A stretch of 52,130 bases of DNA from Nemertoderma westbladi (Eukaryota > Animalia > Xenacoelomorpha): assembly GCA_032718475.1 (NCBI GenBank), contig JAUCBJ010003209.1, positions 1 to 52,130 of the forward strand. Reading direction: 5' to 3'. The notes under the pieces are model-generated. The model saw only the letters and a program-made list of their open reading frames with translations. It was not told the origin of the DNA and searched no databases. A program made the translations under genes and the position numbers. Below are positions 15,701-51,990 of the stretch, piece after piece (the first letter of the stretch is position 1; the number at the start of each line of letters is the position of its first letter).

Positions 15701-18547
15701 CTGTAATCGGCTTGCTACATTAGGTCAGGTCAGGTCCCCAGATCCTGCTACCACTATGGCAGTAATGTGGTACTACCTGTACCTGTCAGCCCAGTAGGGC
15801 AGGCCCGATAAACATAGCCTATTCATTATTTAGTTGATCAAGAGTGAGTTGGTTTAGCCCCGTCAACTAAATAAGTCATTGAGGGCTATAGCGCCTAGGG
15901 CACCATTGAAGGCAAAGGCTTGATACGCATCTGCATTAGAGATGATACACGCCCTGCCCTGTCTATATTGGATGCTCCTCTACCAGTGTAAGGTAACCTA
16001 ACCCAGGAGGCACACTTGGTTCAGGGTGTAACAAATGGACCCCTACAGTCGGCAGCAGGGCTGTAGGCCATGGATAAACGGAAGGTAATCAACCAACGGT
16101 TAGACATGCTAACAAGGTCGGCGGAAGGTAATCAACCAACGGCGACCTACTGCGAAGAGCTTGTAGGAGTTGCGACCACAAGCGGTTTACTCCCGCAACT
16201 GAAAGATATGAGTATGAGAACCCTCCAGGAGAAATACCGGCTCGGTCGTCGCCCGGGTCAACAAGGACCGCGTCCCTCAGTGGTACACCAGGCTGGGATC
16301 GATAAATTGGCTACTGGAACAGAAGACAGAGAAGAAAGAAGAACCAACCTGTTGAAATGTAAAAAGACACTAAAGATTGCTACAATGAACGCACGCACGC
16401 TGAAAGCACATACCAAACAGGGTGACATGGTCGCTCTGGCAATGGAATATAACATCGACATCATCTGCATCCAAGAACATCGGATTTGTCATGAAGACAC
16501 TGCCATGAAGCACAATGACATTGGAAATGGATGGACGTTAGTAACTAGCTCAGCAGTAAGAAACTCGGCCAATGCATCAATTGGTGGAGTAGGAATTCTG
16601 CTAAGCCCATTTGCACTTAAGACTCTAAACAACATCGAATCTATAAATTCCAGGGTTATGATCGCAACATTTGATGGGAATCCCAAGGCAACAGTTATAT
16701 GTTGCTACAGTCCAACCAATGCATCAGAGCCAGAACAAGCAGTCAAGTTTTATGAAGAACTGACTGGACTTATAAAGGACATTCCGAAACACAATGTTAA
16801 AGTCATTGCTGGTGACATGAATGCGCAAATTGGCCCAGAAGACATCAAGGGTTACACCTATAACACCAGTTCCAACAGAAATGGGTACTTACTTTTAGAC
16901 CTAATGGAAGAATGTGAATTGATACCAACAAACAACACATCGAAAAGAGTATGGGGAAGCTATGGACCTTTCAATACCCTAATGGAACCAAAGCACAACT
17001 GGATTACATCCTTATAAACAAAAAGTGGAGAAACAGCATGATCAACTGCGAGGCATACAGCTCGTTCAACCTAATTGGTTCGGACCACAGAATTGTGACT
17101 GCAGAGATCAGACTCAGTTTGAGAGCCAGCAAACCCAGGACAAGCAAGCAAATCAAATATGACTGGGAGAAACTCAGAACTGACAATGCTGTAAAGGATG
17201 CTTATACAGTAGAAGTTCAAAACCGCTTTGAAGCACTTCAGTAAATGGATGAAGACCAATCCACCGATTCAATATACCAGAATATAATAACAGCCCACAA
17301 GGAATCAGCTAAGAGGCATATCCCCCAGAAACCTAAACGAAAACAGTATGTGCCATGGCAAAATTCTGAGGTTACTTGTAAGAGAGATGATCTTAACCCT
17401 ATTAAACCCGGGGGGGGGGGGGGGGGTCAATATGACCCCTCCGTGGTTTTTTTTATTATAATTCTGAAACAAACGCAGTTGGGAATCTGAAATTGTATGA
17501 CTGTTCTAAAAAATCTATTGTCTTCCTAGTAGTGAAAACCGTTTTCAAAAATATTGGGTACTTTTCTAGTTATAGCACCATTTTTTAACCCTACTTTTGG
17601 CACTTTTTTTTTGAGACGTTTTTTGAAAATTACATTTCATTAAATATGAATTGTAACATCTCTATTTTTGATTTACATTGGTTTTTGGTGTTAGAAATTT
17701 GATGGAATTCATATAAATTGATTTAGAAATTTCAAACTTGTTTTTTTCGGTGGGTGCCAAATTTTGGTGCCAGCACCAAATTTTGAAGATTTTGGAGATT
17801 TTGTAAATTGATCGTTTGAAACTTGTTTTTTACGCAATTGGGGTTTTTTGGGTTTCTGGATTCGATGAAATATATACGAGTTGCACCAAGCGTATCAAAC
17901 TTGTATTTTTCGGTGCTGTGTGCAAATTTTGGTGCTAGCACGAAATTTTGAAAATCCATTCAATAGATAAAATTGCTTGTGACAATTTATTTCTTGCGTT
18001 TTAGAGGTTTATGGCTGTTCTGAATTCAATGGAAAATATAATTATCGAACTAGACATCTCAAACTTGTATTTATCGGATGTGGGTGCAAAATGTGGTGCT
18101 AGCACCAAATTTTGAAAACCATCAAATATATAAATTGATTGTGTCACCTTGTTTCTTGCGTTATACGGGTTTGACAGGGTTCTGAATTCAATGGAATCAG
18201 TAAAAATTTCATAAGAGTTCTCAAACTTGTATTTTTCGCCGGTGGGTGAAAATTGTTGTGCCAGCACCAAATTTTGGAAAATATGCAAATTGATAAGTAG
18301 ATAGTATCACCTTGTTTCTTGCGTTATACGGGTTTATGAGGGTCCTGAATCCGATGGAATCAATAAAAACAGCACTGGACATCGCAAACTTGTACTTTTT
18401 GGTGATGGGTACGAAATTTGGTGCTAGCACCAAAATTTGCAAAATTACGCCGAAAAATACAAGTAGCAATGATCTGGCATATTAGAAATGTATTCCATTA
18501 GAATCAGCGCCCTCGAAAACCTGAAAATGTGAATTTATAGCATCGTA

Positions 18548-20066: not shown

Positions 20067-22953
20067 AATAATTTTTTTCTTCTGTCGGATCCAGACAAGT
20101 GATACCTACGTACAAACAAAAAATCAGACGTTTTTGTAAATATTTGTAGATTTTAGAGGGGGGGGGGGGGGGGGGGGTCAATATGACCCCCCCCCCCCCC
20201 CGGTATTTGTACAACATTTTATAGCCCGGTACTAATAGGGTTAAGACTTAAGAAAGTTAAAACCAAACAACCAACAACCGAAAACATTAACAAGGTTGAG
20301 AAAGCTAAGGACGATCTTAAATTGGCCTACAACATCAGCCAGGAAAAGTACATACAGGATAAAACTGAAGCAATTCCAACTGCTCACACACAGCAACAAT
20401 CAAGACTTACCTGGCAAACTGTAAATGAGGTATCTGGTCGGTAAAGTTGTGCAAAGGGGCGCCTCAAAGCCGATAGTCCTGAAGAACGTGTTGGGAAGTG
20501 GAAAAATCACTTCAGCAACTTGCTTGGGCAGCCACCAAACATCGAGGTCAGCCCTACAAGGAAAATATATGACAAGACACTACCTATAGAAACAGGGGAC
20601 TTCACACCTGCCGAACTCCAAAGAAGCATTAAAAGCATGTCCAATAATAAAGCGAGTGGATTGTTGATTGGAAAGCCAGCGGAGGTATGGAAAACCGGAG
20701 TGCTAAACAGACCATTATTGAATGTTTGCAACCGGATGTTAAAAGGGGAAAAGCCACCACCAATTTGGACTAAAGGTCAACTAAAGCCTCTCCCCAAGAA
20801 AGGAGACATCGGCATACCAACAAACTATCGTGGGATCTGTCTGCTTGTGGTAGCTGCCAAAATATACAATAAAACGATTCTATATAGGATTAGGCCTCAC
20901 ATAGAGAAACTACTGCGTAAGAGCCAAAACGGATTTCGACCAAGTAGATCAACAATAGCTCAGATACTTGCACTACGGAGACTGATTGAAGGAATTAAGT
21001 CAAAGAATCTCCCCGCAGTCATGATTTTTGTGGACTTCAAGAAGGCATTCGACTCCATCCATAGAGGTAAAATGCTTGAAATCCTAAGAGCTTATGGAAT
21101 ACCAGAAGTAATTGTTGCTGGCATTGGATTGTTATATTGTGACACAGAAGCGCAGGTACTCTCACCAGATGGTGAAACTGAGTTTTTCTCAATCCTGGCT
21201 GACGTACTGCAAGGTGACACATTAGCACCATTACTATTTGTAATTGTGCTGGATTACGCAATGAGGACGGCCACAAAGGGTGAAGATCTGGGATTCACAC
21301 TTCAAGAATGCAGAAGTAGTAGATATCCGGCAACTACAGTCACAGACACAGACTTTGCGGATGACATCGCCCTGCTCTCTAATACGCTAGCAGATGCACA
21401 GCTTCTACTAAATAAAGTGGAGAGGGCTGCTAAGGAGGTTGGATTGCATATAAATGCTACAAAGACCGAATTCATGACCTTTAATGTTGATGGAAACTTG
21501 ACAACCATTGATAATAATCAACTAAGGAAGGTCCATGACTTCCAGTACCTTGGATCATGGATAGAGAGTAGCAAAAAGGACATAGAAGTTAGGAAAGCAA
21601 AGGCTTGGGTAGCTCTATCAAAAAATGATACCATCTGGAAATCAGATCTCTCCAGGCACCTGAAGACTAAGTTCTTTCGAGCCACAGTGGAAAGTGTATT
21701 TTTATACGGGGGTGAGACCTGGACACTGACTAAATCACTTGAACAACGAATTGATAGTTGCTACACAAGACTACTAAGGGCAGCCCTAAACATCAGCTGG
21801 AGACAACACATGACAAACGCCGAGCTTTATGGTACAATACCACCTGTATCAACCATCCTCAGGTCATACCAGATCTACTTCTCTGGCAACCAACTCATGG
21901 AAAGCGTAGTCATGGACGACCGGCCATAACATATATAGATCAACTTGAAATGGATACTGAACTTGGGAGAAACGAAATTGCGACAACTATGGAGAATCGG
22001 GAAGCCTGTAAGGATCTCATTTCCACTGTCCGAGTTCGCTCGACCTAGTAGTAGTAGTACATTGGAGCTGCATATTGAGATGATATGTTGGCTTAATGAA
22101 ACATTTGTGCCACTACCATGCGAGCCACAATTTGCATACTGCAATGCCGCTTGCATTAAGAATGTTGTGCCGGCTTGTTGACATAATTGCGCCGCCATAA
22201 CTCCCTCACTAATAACTTTGCGAGATCAACCGCATCTTCAAGGCCAGTGTCCTTTAAGAGGCATATCAAGAATTCATGGACTTTCCACCATGCTTATTCA
22301 CTCCATGAGGCCGCCAAAGCACAATATTATGCACTAGTTGGTCTTCAAGGCTAAAGCAATGTCCTGCTAAGCGGAGGCGGTTCCGTTCAAGTGACAAGCT
22401 AGGGGAGACTAATGAGACACCTCCAATGTTACATAGTGTCTGGTTAGAGATGTGTACTTGACACCGTGAACCCGATGTAGCATTCTTGTGAATGTGCCAT
22501 CCATACACCATGTCCTGGAATATAGTATCATTATTCAGGTACATGCCCCCCCCCCCCAAATTTTTCTACAAATCTTAATGAGATTGCATGAAATTTGAAA
22601 CAGAGATAGTTTTACCTCCCTCCTTCTCCGTGGGTGAGCCATAATTATTATTTTTGCTTTCAATCTTTAGCTACAAGTGTTTGAAAAATGTGTCTCCGGC
22701 GATATTTCACAGGCCACAGTGCAATCATTCTTCAACCTTATGGTGACCAATAGAAAGCTGCTCATGCAAGGATCCAAATATGAAAAAATATTTGAATTTG
22801 GTTGGGAAACACCTGAGATATGGGCATTCGAATGTTGCATGTATTTGCTTCCCCTGCAGGCCACCTATTCTATTTAATTAATGTACCATATTCTAGAACA
22901 TTTTGTTTATTCCATAGGTAGAGGAGCAACGCAATAATGCAATACTTCTTTAA

Positions 22954-29923: not shown

Positions 29924-31521
29924 CAGGGCCTTCATAAAATAACAGGCCTGGACACAGAGCTGCCCTCAAAAAAATAAGAGGCCAAGTAGGAAGTTTTCAA
30001 GAATAAAATCATAAAGGATTTACACAAATTGCCAATGGAGTTATGTTCTAGAACAAAAATAATTTAATATTTTATTAAATACTTGTTGTGTGTTGTGAAA
30101 TTTTGAAATTATGGTTAGACACTGCAGTGTCAATAACTGTGAAAGTGGGAGTCAGCGGAGTGCATTGAGAACTGTTTTTGCTCCACCAAAAAACGTCGAA
30201 AAGAGAAAGTTGTGGCAAGAGGCACTACGCGAAAATGGTGTAGTGACATTAACTGATAGTATGGGAGTTTGTGAGAACCCTTTCATTCCAAGTCATGTGA
30301 TTGGAACAGGGCAAAGAAAGCGCCTTCATAGAGATGCAACACCGTTTTCGTGCCGGGGTAATGTGGGAGCAAGCTCAAATTCATTTGCATCAACTGCAGA
30401 GAAGAGAAGACTTGTAAATGAGGGTGAAAGACTAGATGCGGAGATCAGAGAGTTTTTGTCAAGTGACATAATAGTGTCCACATCTCAATTCGATGAGGGC
30501 GAACTATCTGAACCAAACAAGCTATTCTATAACTTAATCCAAAATAATGAAAATGTCGTTCATCTTTTCGGAGAGCATGGTGAAAGCGAAGCTGGTTCTT
30601 TAGTCAGTTTAGACAGCAATGGCATGGTGAAAGTTTTCGTTAACGGTAAGAAAATTACGTTGCCGGGGCACTTGACAAAATGGGAGAAGATATCTCGATA
30701 TAGTGAATTGAATAGTGTGTTAACCTTTGCCAAAGAAGTCGAATGGAATGAAATACATAATGCTACAATAGAAAGCGTTGTGAAAGACCTACAGGGACTT
30801 TCAGATGAGGTAGTTGATGAAAAGCAAAGTAAGTTATTTCGATTTTGCGCAGATCAAATTGAGTTAAGCTGCACTCCTCCAAATCGTCGCCGTTTTGGTA
30901 AACTAGCTGACTTATTGTGTTTCTCGGTGATTTTGCATGCAATTTCCGCTGCTGCTTATCGCGAACTGTCAGAGTTACTATATTAATGGTATTATAAAAA
31001 AAGTTAGCTTACTTTATAACGAAATGGCTTTATATATAGATAGATATAGATATATAGATAGATATAGATGTATAGGCTACTGTATATAGCTTACAGATAA
31101 CGAAAAATAGCCCTTACTTACCCGTTGCTAGGGCGAAAGTCATACCCGATATAGTGGGGTGGGTGTTGGTAACATAGCCCCAAACTTGTTAGTTCAGCCG
31201 TTGCTAAGGAGAAAATCTATGTTGCTATGGTAACTGACTTAAAAATGTGTCCATTAAACTCCCCATACACGATATAGTACTGATTTCTGTTGATCCAATG
31301 GCCACAAAGTTGTTTGTTTACCCATTGCTAAGGAGAAAGTCACTGTTGCTATGGTAACTGTGACTTAAAAATGTGTCCATTAAATTCCCCATACACGATA
31401 TAGTACTGATATGTGTTGGTCCCATGATCATAGAGTGAAATGAAGTAACACTTCCTACTTGGCCTCTTTATTTTTTTGAGGGCAGCTCTGTGTCCAGGCC
31501 TGTTATTTTATGAAGGCCCTG
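29924..31521 (+). mobile_element. Internally deleted P-element-like DNA transposon
   Basis: ~70-bp TIRs CAGGGCCTTCATAAAATAACAGG... (29924-29994, 31450-31521). 7-bp TSD GTTGAGT. Contains a THAP-domain ORF. Confidence 0.88.
30111..30986 (+). CDS. Truncated THAP-domain P-type transposase (N-terminal part only)
   Basis: MVRHCSVNNC...FAPP..EKRKLW...VCENPF...RLHRDATP THAP signature. Ends at ISAAAYREL with no DDE catalytic domain. Confidence 0.8.
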   Translation: MVRHCSVNNCESGSQRSALRTVFAPPKNVEKRKLWQEALRENGVVTLTDSMGVCENPFIPSHVIGTGQRKRLHRDATPFSCRGNVGASSNSFASTAEKRRLVNEGERLDAEIREFLSSDIIVSTSQFDEGELSEPNKLFYNLIQNNENVVHLFGEHGESEAGSLVSLDSNGMVKVFVNGKKITLPGHLTKWEKISRYSELNSVLTFAKEVEWNEIHNATIESVVKDLQGLSDEVVDEKQSKLFRFCADQIELSCTPPNRRRFGKLADLLCFSVILHAISAAAYRELSELLY

Positions 31522-33901: not shown

Positions 33902-34000
33902 TACGGTGGCCCACAACGGACAACACAAACCACAAAACGAATGCATAGTGTTCTATGGGGCATAAGTTGCTGTTGAATGCGCCGTGAAAGCCACGGCACT

Positions 34001-35190
34001 TGTAAAGGCTTTTGCGGAATTAGCTGGTTATTTTTCCCGCAAAGTACTCTGTAGGTGTTTTAACGGACATAAAAAGCCGTTTCCTTACTGTACCGGTGTT
34101 TTAGTGGACATCCATTTCTTCTGTATGTGTACTTTAGCGGACATAACTAGCGATTTTATGTCGCAATAAGCCAAAATCCTCTTGATACAGTGTAGTTACC
34201 ATGACGACATCTAACAGCTGATATGTACACGTGTAACTTTTCCTTTGTTTCTTTGTTCGGTCAACCAATCGGAACGATTCTCAGGTTATTTGGACAGAAA
34301 CCTCCGGGAAATCGCGCAATGCATTACGGTTTATGTTTACCTTTTTTCCTGATGCCAGAAGACCGGCTTTGGAATTTCTGTGTTTCAGGCTTTAGCCAAA
34401 CATTAGTAGGCTTTGATCATAGAAACGTATAACTGTTATCATATCACATCCTATCAAACGAATCACACTTGTCATATGGTCATATCTCATACAAACACCG
34501 CATTATTTTTACTGCTATTTACTTTACTTTATATTTACTTTATTAATTATATCAGTTGATGGAATATTATTATATTTGGATAATATCGATAAATAATCAT
34601 AAAACCCCAATCTTCTTGATATACTGAAGGTAAGAGACAGGTTACATAAAGCAATTGCGACTTACATTATATTGGTTTTGGAGTGAATCTAATGCTATTT
34701 CATAGGCACTACATGTGTCGGTTGCTGTTCTCTTTATATGTGACTAAAATTAGTGAAGGTCGGCAGATCGGTGTGCAGCATTGTGCGGTAGTGTGCATGA
34801 TTGTGACAGATAACAAAGCATCTCCTAAAGAATGCGCTTTATACGTGAATCATTAGCCATCCCGTTGTGTTTAGTGTAAGTCATAACTCTGTTTACATAC
34901 TTAGAGCGCCACGTCCTAAAGGAACTGTTGATATTTCCCGAAAGTGAATAATATTTGTCAGAGATTATATATTAACGATCAGTCGAATAATACAGTAGGC
35001 CTACACCGCAATAAGGTCAGAGCTTCCGAATCCAGTCTCCCGGGTATATCCAGCGGGTGAATGGTCGCGCATAGACTGGCTTCGGCTAATGTAGTGTATC
35101 AAATACTCGTCATAGGCTAAAGTCGATTTATAATCTAGAAGACACCTAAATTTGGCAGGTTAAACTGCTAAAGGTCTGAAAGCGCGAACA
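34001..35190 (+). repeat. 5' LTR of the BEL/Pao element (1190 bp)
   Basis: TGTAAAGG...GCGCGAACA, direct repeat of 49754-50932. Confidence 0.96.
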
Positions 35191-36782
35191 ATAACAGTTA
35201 TAATATTCTGATTGCAGTGTAGGCAATAAATATAGTTGTCTATTGTTCTGGTAAGAACAATAACAGTTATACCTTCTTTATTGCAGTAGGCAATAAAGAC
35301 GAAAAGTACCGGTCGACCGGTAATCAGTAGGCCTAAATACCTAAATACCCGAACCGGTACTTACAGCAGTACAGGTACATCAGTATTATTCGATTTTGAT
35401 AATTATATACCGGTAGGTCTTGATATTTAATCAGGGAGGGCCTGCCCTGGTTTTTTATTGGGATTTTACTTATTTCTGTCAGTTTTATTTATCTGTAAGT
35501 TAATATTGAGCAGAAGACGTGTAAGCCTGCTCAGATTGTACAGATAATTTGTAGGCTGGACTGTTGTCTGACTGTTGTTAAGTCTGAAGAGATTACAGTG
35601 TGTGTAGAGTGTATGTCCGATAAAGTACTAGTTAGGAAAGTGGGTGGCATCCAGTGCTGTAAGGTAAATCCCCCTGAAAGAATAAGTCGTACTACTCGGT
35701 TAGAACGCATACTAACTAACCATTTCGGAGTCTGCATATACTGTGGTTTATTTAGGTTTGATAGTAGTCTGCCAGCGTTTGGTCTGTATTTTGTTTGTGT
35801 AGTCTGTAAGGGTAGCGTAATATTTATTATTCAGAGTTTATGCGATTATTCGCAACAATCATACCCCATGTTTATTCCTACAGTAATTGTGCTTGTTATA
35901 TATACCGTTATAGTTAAATTAACCCCGGTACTACATCAGGGCTGTTTGGCATAGGTAAAGACTGGAGATTTTATGCTTTGGTCACTCCGGCAGATACCGT
36001 GGTTCCTTTAGCTGTACAAGTATTTTTAACTGCTGATTATTTGTTGTATAAGTACTTGTACCTAATTTAGGGTTTAGTGTACAGTGCTTTCCGAAGGTAA
36101 TTAGTGTGTAGGCAGTATATTTGTGTTGTAAAGTGGTTAATAGGCACGTTGGCTCTGGTAGGCCGCGGTAATTAACTTCTAGGTAGGAACACTCCGTGAT
36201 ACATAACGTAGTACTTATAGCGATACGGCTATAAGTCGTCAGACGGTGGTATTTTTCCTATCTGGACAACGCAGTATATTTACTACTGCTTTGTTATTTT
36301 CAAATACCGTAGTATCCTGTCTGTTTGTAATAACCAGATATTCTAACCCTTTGTTAGGCTGGTTTGTAGACTTCTTGTAAAATTACCCTAAAAATTCGTA
36401 CGTGTAATTTTTGTGTTTATTTAGAGATTGTAATCTCACCCCGAATTGTATGTAATTTGTAGTATTAAGTAACTTAGGCAAATTAGAATTATTTGTTTTA
36501 GTGTCCAACAAGTAGCACTTCACTGAGAGCGTACAGCTTCTGTGCAGTGACTCCTTCCCAGAAATAATAACATTTATTTCAAATATTGACAAAAACCCAT
36601 TAAACGAGTATATATATATTATAAATCAACTCAAACTGATTTATAAAATAGTAGGCCTGTCATACAACAATTAGGTCTTAATATCAGTTGGACTACTGCT
36701 TAAATAACGGTAATAAGGTAAAGTAAAGTAACCAAGTAACCCCCCTAAAATTCAGAAATTCAATTATTCTAAAATAATTGAC

Positions 36783-37392
36783 ATACCGGTATTTACAATA
36801 GGCTTATTATATTTATTTCTATAAATTTGAGCTGAAATTATATACCGGTATTCTGTAATTAATTCTAGTCTGTAATTATACTTATATATATACTATAAGT
36901 GTAAGCTGTATACCGGTATTCACGATAGGCTTATTATATATTTATATATTTGCGCTGAAATCATATACCGGTATTCTGTAATTAATTCTAGTCTGTAATT
37001 ATACTTATATATACTATAAGTGTAAGCTGTATACCGGTATTCACAATAGGTTTATTATATATTTATATATTTGCGCTGAAATTATATACCGGTATTCTGT
37101 AATTAATTCTAGTCTGTAATTATACTTATATATACTATAAGTGTAAGCTGTATACCGGTATTCACGATAGGCTTATTATATATTTATATATTTGCGCTGA
37201 AATTATATACCGGTATTCTGTAATTAATTCTAGTCTGTAATTATACTTATATATACTATAAGTGTAAGCTGTATACCGGTATTCACGATAGGCTTATTAT
37301 ATATTTATATATTTGCGCTGAAATTATATACCGGTATTCTGTGACAAACCTAGTCTGTAATAATACTTATATATACTATAAGTATATACTGG
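36783..37392. repeat. ~120-bp tandem repeat (~5 copies) in the BEL 5' leader
   Basis: tataccggtattctgtaattaattctagtctgtaattatac... recurs about every 120 bp, with two taccggta palindromes per unit. Confidence 0.9.
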
Positions 37393-37531
37393 TACTCTAA
37401 TATATTGTATATATATCATATTACATAGAGTAACGATATCGGTAATTAATTACTAGGCTAACAGTGATACTGAATTACTAGACTTGCTTTAACTGTAATA
37501 TAGCAGTAGGCATTCAACTGTACAAACAAAC

Positions 37532-40500
37532 ATGTCTGACACAAAGCAAAACCTGTCAGACAGTCTCCTAGATACAACCATCTGTGACCCAGACAGGAGT
37601 GTGGAACGTGTGAGACCGAAGTTCAACTCACCTCCTACTGTAAGAAAGATCATCCCTCCAGTAGTAGTATCAGACCCTAGGCTAGTCCAACACCGTAGGT
37701 CTATCATAGGCACTCGAGCTCGGGTCAAGCGGGACCAAGAGGCAGCTGTTGAACAGCAGCAACACTCGAGCCGAGAGCTTGTTTCTCAGCGGCCCTACAG
37801 CTCCAGTAGTGCGGATACTGTAGAGCTGACACCCGAGCGCGGAGCAAAGATGGCAGATGCGGTTTATTCGGACCCCCTTCTCATCCTTCCCGCAGCCGTA
37901 CTCACTAGGGTATTGATTGCGGTGGAGGAACACCAGATTGATTGGGCGAGAAGTAAGCGATCGACCAAGGATAGTTATGCGGGATACACAAGGGAAGAAT
38001 TGAAGTCTATTGTCGAGTCGCAATAGAACTTCCCCGGACCCGGACTCCCGTTTGGCTTATCGCAAGCTGCCTGGGAAGACATACACAGGATGGGAGTGAC
38101 AAAAGAAACCAGCGATCCAGCTGTGTGGAAGAGGTCAGCAGCAGGATACGTACATGGATTCTTCAGCTCTATGGAGCGATTAGAGGAACAACTGTTTCGA
38201 CAACCCCAAGGACCTCAAGAGCAGGGAGAGCTGCTTTATCAAGTTAGAGAAATAATTCTAAGAATCAGACTAATCTTATCGGCCTTTGAGGAGGCTTCGA
38301 AAAGAAGACAAGACACGTCGTTGCAAGTTGCCGTAAAGACTTGGTTTCAGCGGGTGAGTCTCAAAGTTCAAGGAACTGCCCAGTGGAAATCTCAGCTGGC
38401 TGAGCGCTCAACCCATGGAGAATCAACAGACGCTACCTTTTCCCAAGTGGAAAGTGAAGTGACAGCAGAGAAACCGCATAAGAGGGATGCTATTGACATC
38501 TATCTGTCAGACTATCAACGATTTCTAGGTGATGAAGAGTTGAGGAGACGGTTGTCTGGACTTCGCCCTAATAGTGAAGGAGCTAAGCTTGTGTTGGACG
38601 CAATAGATGCGGAAATGTTAGCTGCGAACCAAGCTAAATTTGATGAAAGACTCCGCATCGCTAGGGTCCAAGAAGAACAAGTCAAGAAAAAACGTATAGA
38701 AGACAGACAGCAGCAGCGGCAATGGCAGAGGCAGAAGTGGAAAGAAAAGCGGCAGAGGCAGCGGCAGAGGCAAAGGCGGCAGCGGCAGAGGCAAAAGCCG
38801 CAGCTGCAATAATAGAAGCGGAAAGAAAGCGAGCAGTGGCAGAAGCAGAACGAAGAGCATCTGAAAAGACCACCCAACTAGAGTTGGAAAATATTCAAGA
38901 GAATCAAGACTGCATAAATAAACAGTTAACAGCTAGTCAAATGCAGATGATGAGTCGATCTACTCCCAAAAGACAGGGATATACATCATCTGATGAAGGC
39001 GATACCACCGATCCTGAAGGCGGAGGAAATAGATCTCGTCCAAGCAGACATAGAAGAATGTCCCACCGTCAGAAATTGCCTGATTTGCCCCCAGCTGTTA
39101 GAAGGCAACTAACTAACACAGACTTAGGTAGTACAGAACCCACAGAACCCACAGACCAAATAATTAAAATAGAAAGACTCCCTACTATAGTAGATGAGCC
39201 TGAAATAATTAGGCCTGTTCTCGAAGCCACCCCTTCGGTGATAGAGACACCTGTACTCCCAGAACCTACCTCTAAATTCCCTTTGCACAGTACTAAACTA
39301 CCTATGCCCAGTAGGACTGTTCACGAGTCCGAACCCGTCCTGGACGCCGAGCAAGATATCAATAATTTATCGCCCGTTGTCTCTCGCTCGTCCGCTACTA
39401 CGTTGGCGACTCCCGCTTCGGCGGTCGAGTGGGTAGCAGAGGGACGACGGGAGATGGGTCTCCTGCTCGGGCAGTTGAGGGAACACCACAAGTGCTCCTC
39501 TCAGCAGGTCCGGGAGATGGAAGGATCTGTTCAGCAGTTCAAGGGCACAGTAAGGGAAAGTAGGTTAGAGTTGCAAGAGGTGCAGCAGAGTATCGCATTA
39601 GAACGCGACAAATTAGTAAATACCCAAAGGGGTATACCATCAACCCCGGTAACAATGTGTCAACCTGTTAGGTCTGAAGTATTTCATGCGCAAGGTGTGG
39701 AGCCTACACGCATCTATACTGCTAGTGAAGTAGAAACTCCTATAGTAAACCCTATTAAGGGTAATTATAAACCTGTTGACAATGATATTCCATATAGACC
39801 TGATATAGACCACTACAAGCCTATGCGGGAAGAACTAGAGTAGGTTGGTACATTACTGGCCCTCATGGAAAGGTTACCAAAAGAACGGGTATACCAAGTA
39901 AGTGAATGGGAAGCGGAGAGCAGTGAGGTAGACGACCCAACTGAGGGAACACCATACTCCTCAGATAATGACGACATCCACCAACTCTTCGACGAAGAGA
40001 ATACCATCGATCTCCTTACGGAAAACGAGACTTGGCAAAACCAAGTGAACCTATGTCAACTCATTCGTCCATCAGGACAAGTCGACTATAACGACGAACT
40101 GAATGACGTAGTAGAGCGCTATAACGCAAAGACTTGGGATGAACACGCCGTACGATTCTTTACTCAAGAGGCTGTAGAGCCCAATTCCTACGATAAGGCC
40201 CTATCGGTAGAAGAAGAAAGAGCCAAGCAGATCCAAGAGACAACTACACGTTTTCTTAAAGATCAAGGTAGATATGAAATCGGTCTACCATTCCGAAAGC
40301 GAGAACCAAAATTCATAAACAACCGACCCTTGGCGGAGAAAAGAATTGCTCAACTACATCGACGCCTTACGGCAAATGCTTCAGCTAAAGAAATGTATCA
40401 GACTCAGTTGAAGAAATTTATTAACAAGGGATATGTGGAACGAGTACCGGAAGAAACACCCATAACTGAGAGAACGTACTATTTAACACATCATTACGTT

Positions 40501-43500
40501 CCCAAACCCGGTAAACCCCATGAAGTACAGGTAGTATTTGACGGCTCCGCCCTCCACATGGGCCAATCCCTTAATTCCGAGTTGTTACCAGGACCCAACT
40601 TACTCCAATCCTTGTTGGGAATACTCTTAAGATTAAGACAATATTCAATCGCTTTCGCCTCCGATATAGAAGGCATGTTCTTACAAGTCAAGGCGGTGGA
40701 TAGGGATCGAGACAGCTTACAATTTCTGTGGTGGCCGGAAGGAGACCTCAATCAGAAACCGGTGGAGTATGGGATGACCATCCAGGCTTTTGGGATCATC
40801 TCAAGCCCTTCAAACGCCTGTTCAGTGGTGCGCACCACTGCTGATGACAACCGGGACGCCTTCTCTAAAGAGGTGATCGACAACATCAAACGGGATATAT
40901 ACATGGACAACAATTTAAAGTCCCTTCCATCAGTTCAAGAAGCCATTGATGTCGCCAAAGGAACGGTAGAGTTCTTAAAAAGAGGTGGATTTCGATTAAC
41001 TAAATTCACCAGCAACTCCCGTGAGTTTCTGGAATCTATCCCGGTAGAAGATCGAGGAGCGAAAGATCTAGACCTAATCAAAGACGATCTTCCAGAAACC
41101 AAGACACTTGGTTTGAAATGGGACACAGAGAGAGATATCCTGTTTTTCCAGCTAAAACAGCGAGATAATCCAGTTCGGACTAAACGGATTTGTTTAAGTA
41201 TCCTGAGCACTTATTTCGATCCATTGGGATTTATTAGCCCAGTTATATTGATTGCTCGGAGCTTAGTACAACAAATGTGGCTTGAAAACCATTCATGGGA
41301 CGATCCACTTAAGGGAGAACTATTAAAGAAGTGGATGAAATGGGAAGATTCTCTACCAGCCATCGAGAACTTTATAATTTTCCGTTCATATTTTGGTCAT
41401 GTTCTCCCTACGTATTCCTATCAACTCCATGTGTTTGGAGACGCCAGCGATATGGGAATAGGTATAGTAGCCTACCTGAGAGTGGAAACTCCGGATGGAA
41501 TCAAAGTCGCCTTGGTTACCTCTAAGGCATTGATAAACAACAAGTTGAAAGTTCCTCGAGCGGAGTTAAAAGCGGCTCTATACGCTACAGCCATCGGCCG
41601 GAATGTAACAGAACAGATCGAATATCCACTGGAGAAAACTGTCTATTGGACCGATGCTTTACTCGTGTTGGAGTATATAACCAATGAAGTCTGTCAGTTC
41701 AGTGTCTTCGTTACCAACAGAGTAGCCATTATACTTAGTCGCACGAAGATGGATCAATGGAGACATTGCCCCGGAACGATTAATCCAGCAGACATCGCCT
41801 CCAGGGGAGCAACTCCACAAGAACTGATAGATACTCCAGACTGGTTAGGTGGACCTGACTTCCTAAGCAAAGAAGAGGATGAATGGCCTCCTCATCTTAC
41901 TACGGCGGAGATTAGACAGGCCAAGGGAGCGGAGAAAGTCAAACCTAAAACTCGGGCGAGTAAATCGAAGTTATTTAAACCCGTGGTAGATCTGTCTGTA
42001 CTACATACTTCCGGAGACGACGCTTTGGATCCAAAACCCACAGCCACAAATAAGTCTGTTGTGGAAATCAGAGAGAAGGATTGGAAATCTGGAATACCAG
42101 ACGTCTCGCAAGGACTCTCACCTCTCCTGCAGAGAGCGATATATCACTACAGTTCCTGGAATCGGCTCTGTAAGGCCGTTACATATTTAAAGCGATGTTT
42201 TCATCATCACTACTCCAGGACGAAGACCAATAGTGATACCGCTCCACTGACATCTGTGCAGGTCCATGTTGTTAAAGATCTTCCCAAATATAAGATATCC
42301 GACAGGTTTCTGAAGGAGAAGATCAGTTATCAGGAGCATGAAGAAACCAATAAGCAGATGCTGAGACTCCTGCAATGCTATGAGGATTCCGATAAGTATT
42401 TCCTGTTGTTGAGAAATCCACAGATGCACTTAAGGGATCGTTTCTCTAGCACAATGATAGATGGGTTGATACGTGTTGGAGGAAGATTAACTAATGCTCC
42501 ATTATCCTTTGACACTAAGTTTCCCATACTCATTAGAAATCTTGAAATACAAATCAAGATGATTGTAGATGTTCACAGCAAACTTTACCATGCTGGTAGA
42601 GAACGAGTTCTTAGTGAAATTCGAACTCGCTATTATTTTTATAAACCCCGTAGAGCTCTGAACCAAGTTCTTAGGAACTGCATACCCTGTAGGAAAGCAT
42701 TCAGTAGGCCTTTAACACAGCGAGAGGCAGAATTACCTAGGGAACGAGTAAGCTTCTATGAACCACCCTTTACTAATACCGGTGTAGATTTATTTGGCCC
42801 TATTGAAGTATATCGTGCTAGGACTATAGTCAAGAGATGGTGTGTCATCTTTGTTTGTATGACTTGTAGGTAGAGCTATCCATCTAGATATGGTGAACGA
42901 TTTATCTACCAACAGCTTCCTATTGAGCTTACGACGAAAGATCGCTCGCTTTGGAACTAGTAACACGATGAGATCTGATAAGGGAACGAACTTCATTGGT
43001 GCCAACAATGAAATCAAGGCTTACGTCAAAGATTGGAACCAAAGACAGGTGGACGATCAGCTAAGGGTAACAGCATCTAGCTGGACCTTCAACGCCGCCG
43101 ACGCCCCTTGGTGGGGAGGAAGTTGGGAGAGATTAATCAGGAGCGTGAAGACCGCATTTCACTTTATAGTGCCGTGCCGCGCGTATCTCACCGACGAACT
43201 TTTGCGGACATTAATGGAGGAAATCGCCGCCTATCTCAACGAGAGACCGCTTATGCCAGTCTCATCGAGTCCCGATTCCCTGGAAGCACTAACACCCGCG
43301 CACTTCCTACTGAAGAAACCTGTAGCCATGCTCCCACGATCGGAAATCACAGACGGAGACGAATACTGCCGACAAACTTGGCAACTTATGCAGTTGTTAT
43401 CCCTTCGTTTCGCTGACCATTTCGAAAAACATTATCTGCCCACGCTACAACTTCGAACTAAGTGGTTTGCGCAGCAAGAAAACGTCAGCGCTGGAGACAT

Positions 43501-43789
43501 GGCCCTTATTGTGGATTCAGATCTTCCACATAAGCGGTGGCAGACAGGTCGTATCATCGAGACTCACATCTCGGATGATGGTTTGGTGCGATCGGTAGAT
43601 CTCGTCATCATGCGACGTAACTTTAAGAAACCGGGAATTGTCTTCGAGACACAGCAGCTCAATCGCCCAGTTGGCCGTTTATGTTTACTGGAAAGAGACC
43701 GAGAACTCTCCGGAAACTATGGAAGGCAAGATACTCTTCCCACGACCACCTCCCTGATCCAACAAACATCTAGGGACTCCCCAACGTAA
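37532..43789 (+). pseudogene. BEL/Pao gag-pol polyprotein, disrupted
   Basis: Same-frame stops at 38024-38026 and 39841-39843; frameshifts near 38700 and 42870. Motifs GRYEIGLPF, VVFDGS, LLPGPNL, DIEGMFLQV, YMDN, KTLGLKWD, FDPLG, LHVFGDAS, PRAEL, WTD, NPADIASRG, H..LYH...C..C, GVDLFGP, SDKGTNF, GGSWER. Confidence 0.93.
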
Positions 43790-45429
43790 CAGCGTCTGGA
43801 GTGGGTGTGTGACTATATGATTTCATATATTCTTATTATTTTATATTTATGTATGTATTATTATGTAATTTTATTATAATCGTTTTCTTTAATTTTATTT
43901 AGTAGAATGTTATTTTAGCGATTATTTAGTAGATTAGTGCAATATATATTAGTGTTTATTACTTAATTACTTATATATTATATATTTAGAGCAACGGCGA
44001 GAAATAATTCTTTTTCTCTTTCCTTACTGTCCGTATTACATTACAAATACGTAACTACAGTAAGATGAAATATCCGTACTTATTAAAGTACAATAAAGCT
44101 CCTACTATATTCAAGTATTATTGGTAAAGTAGAGTATTAGGAATGCAAAATTCAGATCCTCATGTCTCGGCTAAACCAAGCTCTGGGTAGACCTTGGAAA
44201 CGACTTGCCTCTTCTTACTGACATTGCTTCGTGCGATATTGCTCTCATACCGTATATTAAATAATACATATAGTAGCGTGATGTCCCTTTAACAGTAGCG
44301 CATAACGCAAAATAAATCTGTTAAACCCTTTGACCATCTGTAATTCTAGTCGATTAAGATATCGCGGCACCCACCGATATACTTGAAAAACAAAATTCTA
44401 GAATCAGTGGTTAATGTCCCCAGACATGTTCTGGAATAAACCGGTGCCCATCCTAAATATTAACTATTAATATTTATAAAATCTGTCAAATTTCAGATCC
44501 TTTAAAATTCTAGTCGATTAAGATATCGTAGCACTTACCGATACTCTTAAAAGACAAATTTCCTAGAATCAAGGATCCCAGTCCCCAGACATGTTCTGGA
44601 ATAAAATTATGTCTATTATAATATTAAATAATAAAATTTACGGGAATAAATGTAAATTCATCTTTTTAATGAATTTGATAAATTGTCATTTTATACAATT
44701 TATAACATTCCCAAAATTCCATTAATTAATAGATCATGGGATCATGGGAGATTCACCCTATTAAGTGTATTAGTGTGCGAGAATCTTCAATATATAGTCA
44801 ATAGCTGATAAAATTTATAAAATCATGTATAAAGGGGATATTGACAATTAAAGAATTACTATTAAATAGCATCCCAGATCTGTATGCATGAGAATTACCC
44901 TAATTCTACTGCTAGCTTTCCATAATGTCACCATAGCAACAACCACGCTAGAATTAGAAGTGAGTTAAAAGAACAATAGAAAGCTTACCCCATTGAATAG
45001 CATAGGGAATAAATAGCACACTGCTAGTATCCAAGGATACATAATAATAACGTGGCATTCTGGAAGGCACTTGACTAACGGACAAATGGCCCGAATGTGT
45101 ACAATTTGTGACAGTTGTGTGGAATTTGTGCATTTATAGGTGAATGTTACTACTAAAGTGTGTTTACAGTAGCGAGTCGCAATTGTGAAAGTAGCACTAA
45201 CTCTGCAGCAAGAACCTGAAGTAAATCTAAGCCTTTGGGACGGACAGTGGAGTGACTTGTGCCGGTTATCGTTGTCGTTGTGTAGCTACTACGTTGGCGA
45301 AAACACAGCGACGACGGTACATCGGCGCTGAGGTTCTTGCACTGTCCGGGGGCAGAGAGGGGTAGGCAGCGACGGCCGCTAGCCTAAATATAAACTCATT
45401 ATAATATTGAAAAAACTCATATAGCAGAT

Positions 45430-48400
45430 ATGACTGAGTTGATAGAAGATGATCTTGGTATCAGGGAGCGATATACTCTACCTTTACAAGCGTTTATTGA
45501 TAGCTTGATACGCGGCGACGCTGGTCCAACTACTACGGAGGACGATGGTCGTTATATCGAACCGCCAATGTCCCAGGAGCAACTTACGCGTGAATTGGAC
45601 TATAGAAAATTCACCGCTCGCTATACGCATCGTAATGGTACGTATATGGACTTCTTAACTACTGGCCATCCTATCGATTTACACGATACGGACGATGTAG
45701 ACACCGAAAGGGAAATGGTTTTATTTAAATATCATACCCAGCGGAGTCGGAACGATAAACCGAGAATAGAACACGAGAATTCTATTTGAAACAGACTCGA
45801 AAGGGAAGACGTTGAAGAGCCGGATAAACGCAGCGACTTCAACGATTATCTGGAATTCCTGAGAGAAACATATCTCAATATTGCCAGTCAACAAAATCTA
45901 GAAACTCGATATCCTCAAGATATACATCATGACCCTATGATAGAACTCAAACGACTCTATTTCACTATGATGTATCTTACCGCCGATCGACCGCTACCTG
46001 TCGTCCCCGATAGCTTCGAACAGATGGAGGAATATTGTAAAACTGGAGAACGATCACCCGCGTTTCCCCTGCAGGACGTGCGTCTTTGGTATTACTGCGA
46101 CGAATGCCCTAGACCCAATCAGCAAACGGAAAGACATAAACATCTGCAGAGACGTTGCGCTAAACACAGTTTTACACGATATACTTATGGGAGTTTCGAG
46201 CGAAACCTGTTCGACGTATCACCTACGCTCGCTCGACTCAAACGATCCTTAAATAAACCAATGATCAGAGTTCCGGAATACTCAGTCAGACCTCCTCATT
46301 CCTCAGTGAGACCTCAAACGCTTGATCCTAATAGTATAACGGATCCCCCTGAACTGTACTCGCTATTTAAAGATCTTGTGTTACCCGAACAATTAATCGG
46401 TGGCACTCCGGTAGTGGGCTCACTAGATATTCGCCAACCCTACCTAGCCGGATTAGGACGCGGTCATCTAATATCGCCGTTTAACCCGTACAACCGTCCA
46501 GGCTTAACCCCGATACAACCCGTTACCGAAGTCGAAGAGAGCGTTGTACGAAACGCGTTAGACGCTATTCGGCAGAAAATCGGAAAGGGAACTTACGATT
46601 GTTTAGAGAAACGCAAATTGCAGCAACAAGTCCAAGCGGTGAAAGAATTAGCTTTACCCCAGTTCGATAGAGAAATCCAGAATCTCGAGGAAGACATCGA
46701 ACGTGGACGAACCTGCTCTTTACAAGAGTTCCTAGACGAGCGTTTACAACAACAAGCGGAGGAAAATCAGCTCGAGGAGAAACACATAGAAATGGATGAG
46801 AGAGAAGAAGCAGCTTTAGCCCAGCCAGAAGCTCAAATTCTTATGACGGATCTCTATTCTAAAACCATCATCCATCCTTCGATGGTTCCCCACAAACTCT
46901 TCGCCACGGCACAGCCTCAACCGGTTGATATCAACCTAAGATCTCGAGATCTTATCGCTGACGCTCCCATGTTGCAACGTCCACCAATCGAGGCCGCTCG
47001 TGTCGATGGTATACTCGTTGAAACTCCGGACAATAGAGCGGATCTTGTCCGTCGTATGGTACACGATGTTAACATACGCGCTAGACCTTTACCGGACTCG
47101 TTTTATGGGATCAAAGATCACCCTTATTACGTCAATCTAACGCAATATTACATGGTAAAACCGGAAGATCCTACACATAGTCTGAGGTTTCTACCACTAA
47201 TAAATCCTCTCGATCTTGTCGAACTCGAACAACTGCAGAGACATCTGGATCAGTTAGTTAAAGTAAACTCATTTCGAAAACCCTATAATGTTTCCAGGAT
47301 AGAGAAAGAGACAATAGCTCCGTATAATCGTGATGGAATCATCAAAACTCGATTAGTACACTGGAATCTCGACGTGTTATTCGAGGAGGAAAGAATACAA
47401 CGATATGGAGATGTAGAGACATATACTACACAATATTTAAAGTATAGAGATCTACCTAATGCTAGCGAATGCGCTACCTTGTGGCATCCAGTGGGAATGA
47501 CTCTAGAAAACGCCACTAAAGAGTGGAATGAGACTCTTAACGTTATCGAGATGTATGGAGTTGTCACTTACGATAACGAAGGTAGCGTTCCGGTTGGAGA
47601 ACTGGGAACTACGCGAATGATACATATACGAGGACTAGCTGGTTCTACCCACGTATTTACTCGAGCGTGTTCCGATGTGATTGATTATTCTTTTGAGACC
47701 CTTACCGAGATACAAAAGAAACTCCGACATGGACAATTCGAACTCGCGCAGCGTTACGTCACCGACACCGAGCGCAAACCAGCCATGGGTATCGATGGAT
47801 CGATGTTACCCCAGCCCGTGCTCGAGATGTTGTTTAACGAAAGAATCCTTAAAATCGGCTCAGCTGTTTATGGAGATCTCCAAAACGACTTTCGGAACAT
47901 GGAGAACATTCCATACCCTTTCGTCGATACTCAGCTGATTGCTCCCTGGGCAGAAGGCCGAGGTTTCTTCCGCACTATGTATGCAAATACACCCAGCGGC
48001 ATTACTAAAGTACAACGAACCTCCATCGGACATCTTGCCTTTCAAGAATACGGATGGAATTTCAAGGTTGGAAATCCTATCAACTACCAACAAGTATATG
48101 GAGATCATTATTCTCGATTATACTTTGACGGACCATTGACCGCACCTGGCGCCGTGTATAGCTTTATGAGTGTTCCACTTCGTCCCTCCTTAGCTATATA
48201 CACGATCTTTGAAAACGCCGCACTTGCCGGTTGGCTAGCCGATGTGTGCAGTCGTACCATACGCGCCCATCCCTTAATACTTGGAACCAAACTCGCCAAG
48301 CTAGATGAACACAATAAATTCATCCGCTTCGAATGTTTCAGGCGCTTTCTGACTCCGTTCCGTAACGTTGATAGTCAGTTCAAGGACCGCGCTCTGACCA

Positions 48401-49675
48401 AACTCAGCCTAAGAGACTCAGCTGCGGAGAAGTTAGACAGCGCGGGATTCGCCCTTTTCAAGGACGTTTGTATACAGAACTTACATTCATCTGTTATACA
48501 AAGACCTCGAATACCCACGGGTTATTCTGTCGTGGAAGTTCAGACAGTGGGTTCGCTTGCGGAGACAGCCGCACCTATCTCAGCTATGCAATTGGAAGAC
48601 GAACCAATATGCTTAGAATCTGAGGAGATTCAGCCTACAGCGCCCCGGAGCAGCGATAACGACTACGTCTTGGAATGGTATCAAGGTCCACAATGTCTCA
48701 CCGCATACGATTATCGGCACGCCAACTATGTTTCTCGAAAACGTTGCCGATTATGCGCATCGAGAGATCATTTCACCCCTATGGACTCAGATCGTACCCT
48801 GCTCCTATTTCCATGAACAACCGATGATGGAGATCTATTGTGCGTATTGCAGACTCAATAACTCGCACATTTTTGCAGTCTGCCCCCAATTTATGACTCA
48901 ATGCCACCACTGTCAACTTAAAGGACATGCCAGTTTTAATTGCCCTTTTAACCGCGATCTGGAAAGCGTAGATGAGATGATTACCCTGCGCTACATCCGA
49001 GCTTGGGAAGCGAACGCGGATTTACATTGTGAGTCACGCCATCGCTATTACCCTGGACGCGCCTACGATGGAGTTTACGCGTTCCATCCTTATCTATTCG
49101 CGTCTGTTGAACAAAAAACACGCACACCGAGTTACGAACTAATGAAGCGTGTTGGTGAGTGTATTTCCACCAAATTTGTTCGAAAATATCTCAGGAACGT
49201 CAATCCTAACGATATTAATTCATACCATTTGATCAATTTCATCCGTCAAGACCCTGAGTATGGCGATTTATTTATCAACTCGCACCCTGAGTTACAGGAA
49301 GTATCTTGACAGCCCTACGAATATCGAGACCGAGAACGCGAGCTGGAAAGAACCATTAAACCGAGGAAGTTTCTCACCACTCACGGTCCACCTACCGCTA
49401 TTGTCCAGACGACTCGTCAGGGACCAGTAGGAGCTGCTGTCCTAAGACGCGCCCTAAAGGCCGTTAGACCTCGCTCCACTGAAGTTGATATTGATCAACC
49501 AGGTACCTTGACCGGCAGATACACCGATCGTAATCCTAAACCTACTGATGCAATTGTATTGCACCCTTCACCCAGGAGTTATAGCCCTCCTAGTAAAGTG
49601 GCTCGCCCCAAAGAGAAAAGGACTCTTGCTAGCCTCAAAAAACTGCGTAAACGCCGTCCGCGTAAGAAAGACTAA
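45430..49675 (+). pseudogene. Extra ORF of the BEL element (~1,400 codons): DEDDy-type 3'-5' exonuclease plus CCHC zinc knuckles
   Basis: 45430-45789 and 45937-48816 are one frame separated by a single TGA. Frameshift near 48780-48810; then 48728-49309 reads past one TGA to TAA at 49673-49675. Motifs VVTYDNEG, LPQPVLEMLFNERILKIGSAVYGDL, FVDTQ, SIGHLA, YTIFE; CAYCRLNNSHIFAVC, CHHCQLKGHASFNC. Confidence 0.78.
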
Positions 49676-49753
49676 CTGTTTAGAGTATTTTTATATTTTA
49701 GAAACTGTGATTTTTTATATTTTATAGAATTAAATCCCATTTTCTGGGAGCGG

Positions 49754-50932
49754 TGTAAAGGCTTTTGCGGAATTAGCTGGTTATTTTTCCCGCAAAGTAC
49801 TCTGTAGGTGTTTTAACGGACATAAAAAGCCGTTTCCTTACTGTACCGGTGTTTTAGTGGACATAAAAATCCATTTCTTCTGTATGTGTACTTTAGCGGA
49901 CATAACTAGCGATTTTATGTCGCAATAAGCCAAAATCCTCTTGATACAGTGTAGTTACCATGACGACATCTAATAGCTGATATGTACACGTGTAACTTTT
50001 CCTTTGTTTCTTTGTTCGGTCAACCAATCGGATCGATTCTCAGATTATTTGGACAGAAACCTCCGGGAAATCGCGCAATGCATTACGGTTTATGTTTACC
50101 TTTTTTCCTGATGCCAGAAGACCGGCTTTGGAATTTCTGTGTTTCAGGCTTTAGCCAAACATTAGTAGGCTTTGATCATAGAAACGTATAACTGTTATCA
50201 TATCACATCCTATCAAACGAATCACACTTGTCATATCTCATACAAACACCGCATTATTTTTACTGCTATTTACTGTCGGTTATTAATTATATCAGTTGAT
50301 GGAATATTATTATATTTGGATAATATCGATAAATAATCATAAAACCCCAATCTTCTTGATATACTGAAGGTAAGAGAGACCGGTTACATATAGCAATTGC
50401 GACTTACATTATATTGGTTTTGGAGTGAATCTAATGCTATTTCACAGGCACTACATGTGTCGGTTGCTGTTCTCTTTATATGTGACTAAAATTAGTGAAG
50501 GTCGGCAGATCGGTGTGCAGCATTGTGCGGTAGTGTGCAGGATTGTGACAGATAACAAAGCATCTCCTAAAGAATGCGCTTTATACGTGAATCATTAGCC
50601 ATCCCGTTGTGTTTAGTGTAAGTCATAACTCTGTTTACATACTTAGAGCGCCACGTCCTAAAGGAACTGTTGATATTTCCCGAAAGTGAATAATATTTGT
50701 CAGAGATTATATATTAACGATCAATCGAATAATACAGTAGGCCTACACCGCAATAAGGTCAGAGCTTCCGAATCCAGTCTCCCGGGTATATCCAGCGGGT
50801 GAATGGTCGCGCATAGACTGGCTTCGGCTAATGTAGTGTATCAAATACTCGTCATAGGCTAAAGTCGATTTATAATCTAGAAGACACCTAAATTTGGCAG
50901 GTTAAACTGCTAAAGGTCTGAAAGCGCGAACA
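49754..50932 (+). repeat. 3' LTR of the BEL/Pao element (1179 bp)
   Basis: Preceded by a short PPT gggagcgg (49746-49753) and followed by the TSD GCACT. Confidence 0.96.
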
Positions 50933-51316
50933 GCACTTTACGAAATGTGCCATGGAAATCCACGGCACTTTACGAAATGTGCTGTGAAAGCCACGGCGAT
51001 TTGAGAAATGTGCCGTGAAAGCCAAGGCACTTTACGATATGTGCCGTGAAATCACGGCACTTTATGAAATGTGCCGTGGAATTCCACGGCACTTTACGAA
51101 ATGTGCCGAGGAAATCCACGGCACTTTACGAAATGTGCCGTGGAAATCCACGGCACTTTACGAAATGTGCCGTGGAAGCCACGGCACTTTACGAAATGTG
51201 CCGTGAAAGCCCCTGCACTTTACGAAATGTGCCGCGGAAATCCACGGCACTTTACGAAATGTGCCGTGGAAATCCACGGCACATTACGAAATGTGCCGTG
51301 GAAATCCACGGCACTA
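50933..51316. repeat. 31-32-bp palindromic minisatellite (~12 copies)
   Basis: Unit cggcactttacgaaatgtgccgtggaaatcca, with inverted repeat cacggcac/gtgccgtg. Confidence 0.92.
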
Positions 51317-51398
51317 CGTGAGTTTTTTAATTTATGGCGGGTTGTTTGAATTTAAAACCTATTGTTTATGTTTAAAACCCTTAATACTTTCTGTATAG

Positions 51399-51990
51399 GC
51401 GTATACCGGTACGACTTGAAACTGACAGAGGAACCGAAAACGGCGTTATGGCGGCAGCTCATAGTTATTTTTCCCAGAATCTAGATGCACATAGATACGT
51501 TAGTTCGCCACGCAACCAAAGAGTAGAAGCGTGGTGGTCTTATCTCCGGAAGTCGTGGTCAACATGGTGGATTAATTTTCTCACTCATCTCGTCGAAAAT
51601 GTAGAATTTGATCCGGGGAACCTGATTCACATCGATGTAATATGGTTTTGCTTTGCCAGTACCATACAGAAAGAGTTAGATGATATCGCTATTGCCTGGA
51701 ACAATCATAGTATTAGGAAGTCTCGATACGATACTATATCAGGAAAACCCTTATATAACTTTCTTTATCCCTCGGGTGATTATACCAACCTCCAAAGACC
51801 GGTCGGATAGATTGTTTATACGGAAGTTCTAAACTATGTCTCAAACTCGATAAACTCCGCCAATGACAGTTACAATAGTGATAATGAATCTTATATTAAG
51901 TATATTTTTAACTCACTTGGCATTACGCCTCCTACAACTTGGCAGCAATCACTGAATTTATTCCGATTCATTATAAACCAGTGGTGAGAC
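51399..51990 (+). pseudogene. Integrase-core/DDE transposase fragment (IS3EU-like)
   Basis: After acceptor-like ttctgtatAG the frame reads IPVRLETDRGTENG...SSPRNQRVEAWW...WNNHSIR. In-frame stop at 51808-51810. Confidence 0.7.

Follow-up and report, generated by a model that had tools for sequence, protein, structure and literature searches.

The element and its third reading frame

The DNA analysed here, referred to as the window, is a 52,130-nucleotide stretch of the Nemertoderma westbladi genome (contig JAUCBJ010003209.1 of assembly GCA_032718475.1, positions 1 to 52,130 of the forward strand) that contains a BEL/Pao long terminal repeat (LTR) retrotransposon. Between the end of its pol gene (43789) and its 3′ LTR, on the same strand, lies a third open reading frame (ORF3) with an RNase D-like domain of predicted DEDDy exonuclease fold and a cluster of zinc knuckles. 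This copy is a decayed version of a conserved accessory gene in a multi-copy BEL/Pao family. Three-frame translation of positions 45430 to 49675 yields approximately 1,415 codons, interrupted by two stop codons and a single change of frame, in agreement with the original prediction of a frame of about 1,400 codons with two TGA stops and a single frameshift. The frame opens with an ATG at 45430 (an AG is found 2-3 bases ahead of it), meets a TGA at 45787-45789, remains open over 45790-48816, changes frame inside its first knuckle, where the two frames overlap at 48617-48816, crosses a second TGA at 49307-49309, and ends at 49675, 78 bp from the 3′ LTR. This copy cannot encode the whole protein, and its nuclease domain (47482-48381) is uninterrupted.

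The N-terminal part of ORF3 bears a Cys/His cluster, CDEC...CAKH (46090 to 46170), which has no Pfam match and is possibly a zinc site. It is followed by a charged segment (46540 to 46830) composed to 45% of E, Q, K, and R; of the coiled-coil-like region proposed earlier, the charge was verified by composition, and the segment is probably a coiled coil. The RNase D-like domain occupies 47524 to 48249 and includes two insertions, with its motif residues D47572 and E47578 (ExoI), D47875 (ExoII), and Y48199 and E48211 (ExoIII) lying exactly where they had been placed. Downstream, a knuckle cluster at 48745 to 48943, recognized by pattern and by alignment to a remote homolog, comprises a frameshift-cut half knuckle (Cx2Cx4H, 48745) and two whole CCHC knuckles (Cx2Cx5Hx4C at 48839 and Cx2Cx4Hx4C at 48902), which accounts for the two to three expected. 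The basic tail KKLRKRRPRKKD (49637 to 49675) closes the frame, as anticipated, and may act as a nuclear localization signal. No transmembrane helix or signal peptide is evident, the best 19-residue hydropathy being 1.19 and the N-terminus acidic; lacking a hydrophobic helix, ORF3 is therefore not env, again as foreseen.

Copies of the element were seen only via short contigs from four public runs of organism A, whose depth was not taken as copy number; a further run, X5, only guessed to be RNA, does not count here as evidence of expression. In all four runs, contigs cover all 30 element bins. ORF3 is found in other copies, and its 901-bp nuclease stretch, for which the listing shows no indel, drew 1,480 and 4,096 contigs in two runs. 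Among the best-supported 40 of 193 nuclease-domain differences, 35 leave the amino acid unchanged when read in the ORF3 frame, versus 29.7% expected at equal transition share (binomial p 4e-14; rough pN/pS 0.06), and just three of the 40 are synonymous in either of the other two forward frames. A share below 90% in run X1 was recorded for 38 of these 40, which therefore represent variation among copies, and none of the 40 hits a motif codon, while the remaining 153 could include such codons. This synonymous excess implies that ORF3 had a function in the family and that purifying selection acts on its nuclease domain among copies. The whole-element list includes 11 ORF3 differences. Five are synonymous, among them the two located in the knuckle frame. 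Of the six replacements, five set this copy apart from nearly all others, as is expected from decay after insertion. A relative at 80-99% identity is present in organism B over 29 of 30 bins (12 contigs). Some contigs of organism A join across 45797-48594, indicating copies without the entire nuclease domain, and others join across 45457-45667, indicating copies without 209 bp of the N-terminal part.

Likeness of the ORF3 domain to RNase D

Searched against NCBIfam, the ORF3 domain matched RNase D families only, two in number, with E-values of 0.0032 and 0.02. A profile combining ORF3 with its remote homolog, referred to as P0001, gave 62 matches at E<=0.1 in 60 of 301 bacterial genomes; the ExoII block is the location of 58 of these matches, and the best 30 of the 62 are all RNase D-family frames. 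When compared by hhalign with an RNase D profile of 54 loci, the domain reached a score of 44.7 and a probability of 88.8, against at most 25.7 for 60 shuffles, 13.7 for the reversed sequence, and at most 19.7 for six other stretches of pol and ORF3. P0001 attained a probability of 52.7 against the same profile in an alignment spanning ExoI, II, and III. A short NrnC-like profile was also tried and matched neither the ORF3 domain nor P0001 (probability <4).

All 72 rows of the motif-trimmed alignment agree at D17, E19, D118, and Y226, and D47875 of ExoII aligns to an invariant Asp. ExoI is placed by motif and not by statistics: the heptapeptide VVTYDNE fits it by motif, end-anchored alignments, and model confidence, and global alignments favour the D47572/E47578 register, in which the third strand is followed by an insertion of 29 residues. 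The acidic set in ORF3 and P0001 is D-E-D-E. ExoIII, described as degenerate in the original prediction, does depart from Y-xxx-D in having a Glu after its conserved Tyr, but the same Glu is common to P0001, so the motif is not merely degenerate. As judged from sequence, the profile matches are weak though consistent with one another, and support is strong for the ExoII block only. Behind the exonuclease, no HRDC domain was detected, neither as a Pfam match, the only route by which eukaryotic HRDC was sought, nor with a bacterial HRDC-region profile (score 11.5, shuffle mean 11.3).

When 1.84 billion representatives were searched exhaustively, P0001, a protein of 648 amino acids, was the sole match at E<=0.001 (E 5.3e-5, 30% identity); it forms a singleton cluster. 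It has the same order of parts as ORF3, namely an exonuclease-like region, a spacer, and three knuckles, and it keeps D-x-E, D, and Y-xxx-E, with Glu as the fourth acidic residue. The knuckles of the two proteins align with a score of 75, reached by none of 1000 shuffles, and those of P0001 also align with retroviral nucleocapsids; the part of ORF3 after the knuckles has no significant alignment to P0001 (1838 of 2000 shuffles reach the score). Word-based searches found no homolog of ORF3 residues 420-900 at E<=0.01 and, with P0001 as query, P0001 itself only, and the two-sequence profile of the ORF3 domain and P0001 had no match among proteins of 122-448 amino acids. Contig scans gave no match in viral contigs, prokaryote genomes, or a first metagenome scan, and a single plasmid match was attributed to chance. 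A second metagenome scan returned one fragment, L001 (644-1088), split as if by introns, which carries D-x-E, an ExoII block 56% identical to that of ORF3 over 25 residues, and a weak PF01612 match (E 0.05); it is not independent support because it was picked by pattern. In a cluster atlas, whose assignments serve as leads only, the best named cluster was PF01612 for ORF3 (0.83, 51% of members) and PF01612 with zf-CCHC for P0001 (0.86).

A fold model of the domain was guided by an alignment of 70 bacterial RNase D and NrnC-like rows trimmed at the motifs. Its predicted local distance difference test (pLDDT) values are approximately 85 at ExoI, 83-95 at ExoII, and 66-81 in the ExoIII helix, with a mean of 60.6 and poor insertions. 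The best Z-scores, 11.8, 11.6, and 11.6, were to diDNase, RNase D, and the Pol I exonuclease (root-mean-square deviation 3.2-3.3 Å over 143-147 residues), within a range of 11.8-10.1 across diDNase, RNase D, Pol I, NrnC, WRN, EXD1, Egalitarian, and Nibbler. Among viral models, Foldseek matched a Pandoravirus DnaQ-like exonuclease (3.7e-4). These structure matches suggest compatibility with a DnaQ-like fold rather than furnishing independent proof of it, and as to which DEDDy subfamily may have donated the domain, the modelled matches tie across the group. Of the DEDDy kinship first proposed, the RNase D likeness stands, strong at ExoII only, and no particular kinship to MUT-7/EXD emerged, the best sequence matches being to bacterial RNase D and the structure matches tied across DEDDy enzymes. 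None of the three outcomes named beforehand as able to refute the claim, namely no DnaQ-like fold, absence of the ORF elsewhere, and neutral evolution, did so.

The surrounding element and window

The element measures 16,932 bp, and its insertion interrupts a 32-bp satellite. The left target-site duplication, GCACT (33996 to 34000), lies within the satellite and is followed by the 5′ LTR (34001 to 35190; 1,190 bp), whereas the right duplication (50933-50937) directly follows the 3′ LTR (49754 to 50932; 1,179 bp). Both LTRs, delimited by self-comparison, have TG...CA ends and differ by 12 substitutions over 1,171 aligned bases plus four indel events, approximately 1% divergence. Between them are a long leader (35191 to 37498) holding a 121-bp tandem array at 36783-37383, a broken, charged, and helical-looking ORF1 in the gag position (37499 to 39843), pol (39844 to 43789), ORF3, and a short purine-rich tract, GGGAGCGG (49744 to 49753), ahead of the 3′ LTR, all on the forward strand. 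The pol gene, which changes frame near 42870, shows the reverse transcriptase (RT)-RNase H-integrase order with BEL-type domains, including RT YMDN at 40900. The element is assigned to BEL/Pao because pol carries Peptidase_A17 (E 7e-36), Integrase_H2C2, and DUF5641 (E 2e-19), and the host element named in the original prediction is corroborated by these domains together with the LTR pair and the target duplication.

ORF1 and pol are both broken in this copy, and neither a CCHC knuckle nor an aspartic protease motif turned up when the two were searched with Pfam and by pattern; ORF1 has no Pfam gag family match. The stretch 37499-40250 is charged and proline-rich, runs nearly straight into the pre-RT region, and matches no capsid family. 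The only knuckles found in the element are those of ORF3. The lack of gag knuckles, capsid family, and protease motif may mark either a deletion derivative or a family trait. By sequence inspection, the TGG-type primer site is absent next to the 5′ LTR (for BEL/Pao, a tRNA-Arg or tRNA-Gly site is expected), a primer-pattern scan gave a chance-level result, and no tRNA genes were detected within the window. In place of such a site, positions 35186-35297 hold an imperfect duplication, 45 bp long, of which the LTR end is part, and some copies skip 78 bp here.

After the pol stop, positions 43790-44150 consist of a purine run, TG, and approximately 300 bp that are very rich in AT and contain AATAAA, resembling an old polypurine tract and LTR without a second copy within the element; this is possibly the scar of an ancestral 3′ end that predates addition of the ORF3 module. 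The pol-ORF3 spacer also contains a 100-bp direct repeat, 83% identical (44342-44605), possibly part of an internal promoter. Elsewhere in the window, an uninterrupted 428-codon frame at 4487-5773 matches the amiloride-sensitive sodium channel family (E 4e-62), and mobile-element remains, with LINE-type endonuclease and RT, a THAP domain, and an rva_4 integrase core, are found at 16067-17017, 20445-21929, 30099-30986, and 51385-51810.

Possible roles and relation to known systems

We consider it slightly better than an even bet, at a probability of roughly 0.52, that the ORF3 product is an RNA-binding 3′-5′ exonuclease of RNase D (DEDDy) fold that trims RNA 3′ ends for the element. The knuckles would hold single-stranded RNA, the D-E-D-E site would still bind two metals, and the basic tail would bring the protein to the nucleus, and the substrates would be RNAs of the element cycle, such as transcript or primer ends in its ribonucleoprotein.

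Several observations weigh against this proposal. The ORF3 protein has no Pfam exonuclease match at E<=10, and PDB sequence searches gave no nuclease. Local and untrimmed alignments put the RNase D ExoI near 47680-47720, a stretch without D-x-E, and the ExoI match between ORF3 and P0001 was reached by 523 of 1000 shuffles and is not significant alone. At ExoIII, where both proteins have Glu, Asp is present in 70 of 70 reference rows. The guided model is compatible with the anticipated DnaQ-like fold, but the single-sequence model of the ORF3 domain failed (pLDDT 29.6), Foldseek ranked EXD2, Nibbler, and RNase D at the top of the PDB with none at E<=0.001, and the fold matches are partly circular because the model was guided by RNase D rows. 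Only 40 of the 193 domain differences are visible, selected by the tool as best supported. Finally, DEDDy enzymes act on DNA too.

Nibbler and EXD1 act in small-RNA pathways, and both are among the structure matches. ORF3 may thus be an active nuclease directed against host small-RNA guides or precursors, weakening silencing of the element; the diversity and abundance of the family in organism A, as seen in the contig numbers on the 901-bp stretch, are in keeping with such an attack, and a silencing-related role has been raised for rotifer DEDDy ORFs (PMC5408684, as available in part). We hold this to be unlikely, as direct evidence is absent, the structural resemblance is spread evenly over DEDDy enzymes, and the same source, in its available part, found ORF3 and copy number in rotifers not to be clearly related. 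Of similarly low probability is a role comparable to that of EXD1 or Egalitarian, in which a catalytically weak or dead DEDDy fold is retained as a scaffold for binding RNA and, together with the knuckles, would handle export or packaging of element RNA, perhaps replacing the missing nucleocapsid knuckles of ORF1. The ExoIII Asp-to-Glu exchange in both known members, the two large insertions in the fold, and the lack of any knuckle found in ORF1 or pol of this copy all point toward a scaffold, while the retention of four acidic positions and the Tyr at 30% overall identity argues for catalysis. Moreover, RNase HIII and PhoExo I work with D-E-D-E sites, although these enzymes have an RNase H-fold and are not DEDDy (PMC4538837, seen in part); a literature search for a DEDDy example found none.

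The remaining explanations question the gene itself or its place in the family. That ORF3 is a separate repeat inserted into or recombined with this one copy, and no regular part of the family, might be suggested by the AT-rich, LTR-like stretch after the pol stop (~43800-44100) and by the absence of a contig bridging pol and ORF3 among the pieces listed. It is nevertheless improbable, given that pol and ORF3 lie together within one pair of LTRs, diverged by about 1%, and a single target duplication, that self-comparison of the element revealed no inner terminal repeats around ORF3, whose end lies so close to the 3′ LTR, and that pol and ORF3 are similarly broken, with every bin covered in every run. 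To read ORF3 as an env gene that has diverged, or as a frame that arose by chance without coding, would account for the env position and the lack of any Pfam family above cut-off; this reading can for practical purposes be set aside in view of the missing hydrophobic helix, a synonymous bias confined to the ORF3 frame, and a homolog of the same architecture. A more far-reaching version, namely that a BEL/Pao lineage replaced env by an undescribed D-E-D-E nuclease-knuckle family serving as small-RNA counter-defence, with the RNA-binding knuckles shifted from gag to ORF3, is doubtful, somewhat more so than small-RNA attack by itself.

The closest published precedent, as the original prediction had pointed out, is that of bdelloid rotifer elements. 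Rodriguez et al. (2017; PMC5408684, to whose available part all the rotifer comparisons that follow are limited) describe RNase D-like DEDDy ORF3s with a DEED motif in Juno, Vesta, and Terminons. The rotifer cases (Juno and Vesta, and also Athena/Terminon elements) share the RNase D-like DEDDy exonuclease of putative activity, its position as third ORF behind pol, the lack of a transmembrane domain, and the change of one acidic residue to Glu. However, Juno and Vesta are rotifer-specific retrovirus-like lineages, whereas the element here is BEL/Pao; by published description, the rotifer motif is DEED as opposed to D-E-D-E; the rotifer ORF3 has no coiled coils and the knuckles are in gag, in contrast to the nuclease here, which is part of a protein of 1,400 codons that also holds a charged segment and a knuckle cluster; and the rotifer ORF3s tested (env, GDSL) were neutral within the genome, unlike the domain under purifying selection here. 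In the available parts of two reviews (PMC6431247, PMC5718144), DEDDy ORF3 is given for rotifers only.

Motif order, spacing, and predicted fold are those of RNase D (TIGR01388, PF01612), WRN, EXD2, Nibbler, EXD1, and Rrp6, with the RNase D-type blocks LP...K.G....D, P..DTQ..A, and P-L-x7-Y leading into ExoIII in common; the ~20% identity, the two insertions, the ExoIII Glu, and the undetected HRDC set ORF3 apart from RNase D and eukaryotic DEDDy domains. The 1.2-kb LTRs, gene order, and BEL-type Pfam domains are as in Belpaoviridae, but the length of 16.9 kb compares with 4.2-10 kb for that family, the third gene is not env-like, and neither knuckles in gag, nor a protease motif, nor a primer site of TGG type were found in this copy (PMC8742986). 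Dada DNA transposons of Laccaria and Ectocarpus likewise combine a DEDDy exonuclease with a CCHC finger in a mobile element, yet theirs is a DNA transposon with the exonuclease inside the transposase and DEDD kept (PMC3706591, in its available part). The word "exonuclease" is absent from the main text of a BEL/Pao survey (PMC3118150) and of a 2026 env survey (PMC13524379), and no exonuclease ORF in BEL/Pao was found in a literature search that lay outside most subscription papers, Repbase reports, and supplements. DEDDy third genes were thus already known, and what is new here is the BEL/Pao host, the D-E-D-E site, the knuckle cluster, the lack of HRDC, and the length of 1,400 codons.

Little is known about what LTR retrotransposons carry as accessory genes apart from env, and the one published DEDDy case came without sign of selection or activity. 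The element described here offers a gene of predicted DEDDy fold in a second superfamily, BEL/Pao, with strong purifying selection among copies and an unbroken, assayable nuclease domain. ORF3 points to a natural D-E-D-E variant of the active site, and it becomes directly testable whether genes of this kind serve replication or oppose silencing, the question posed in 2017.

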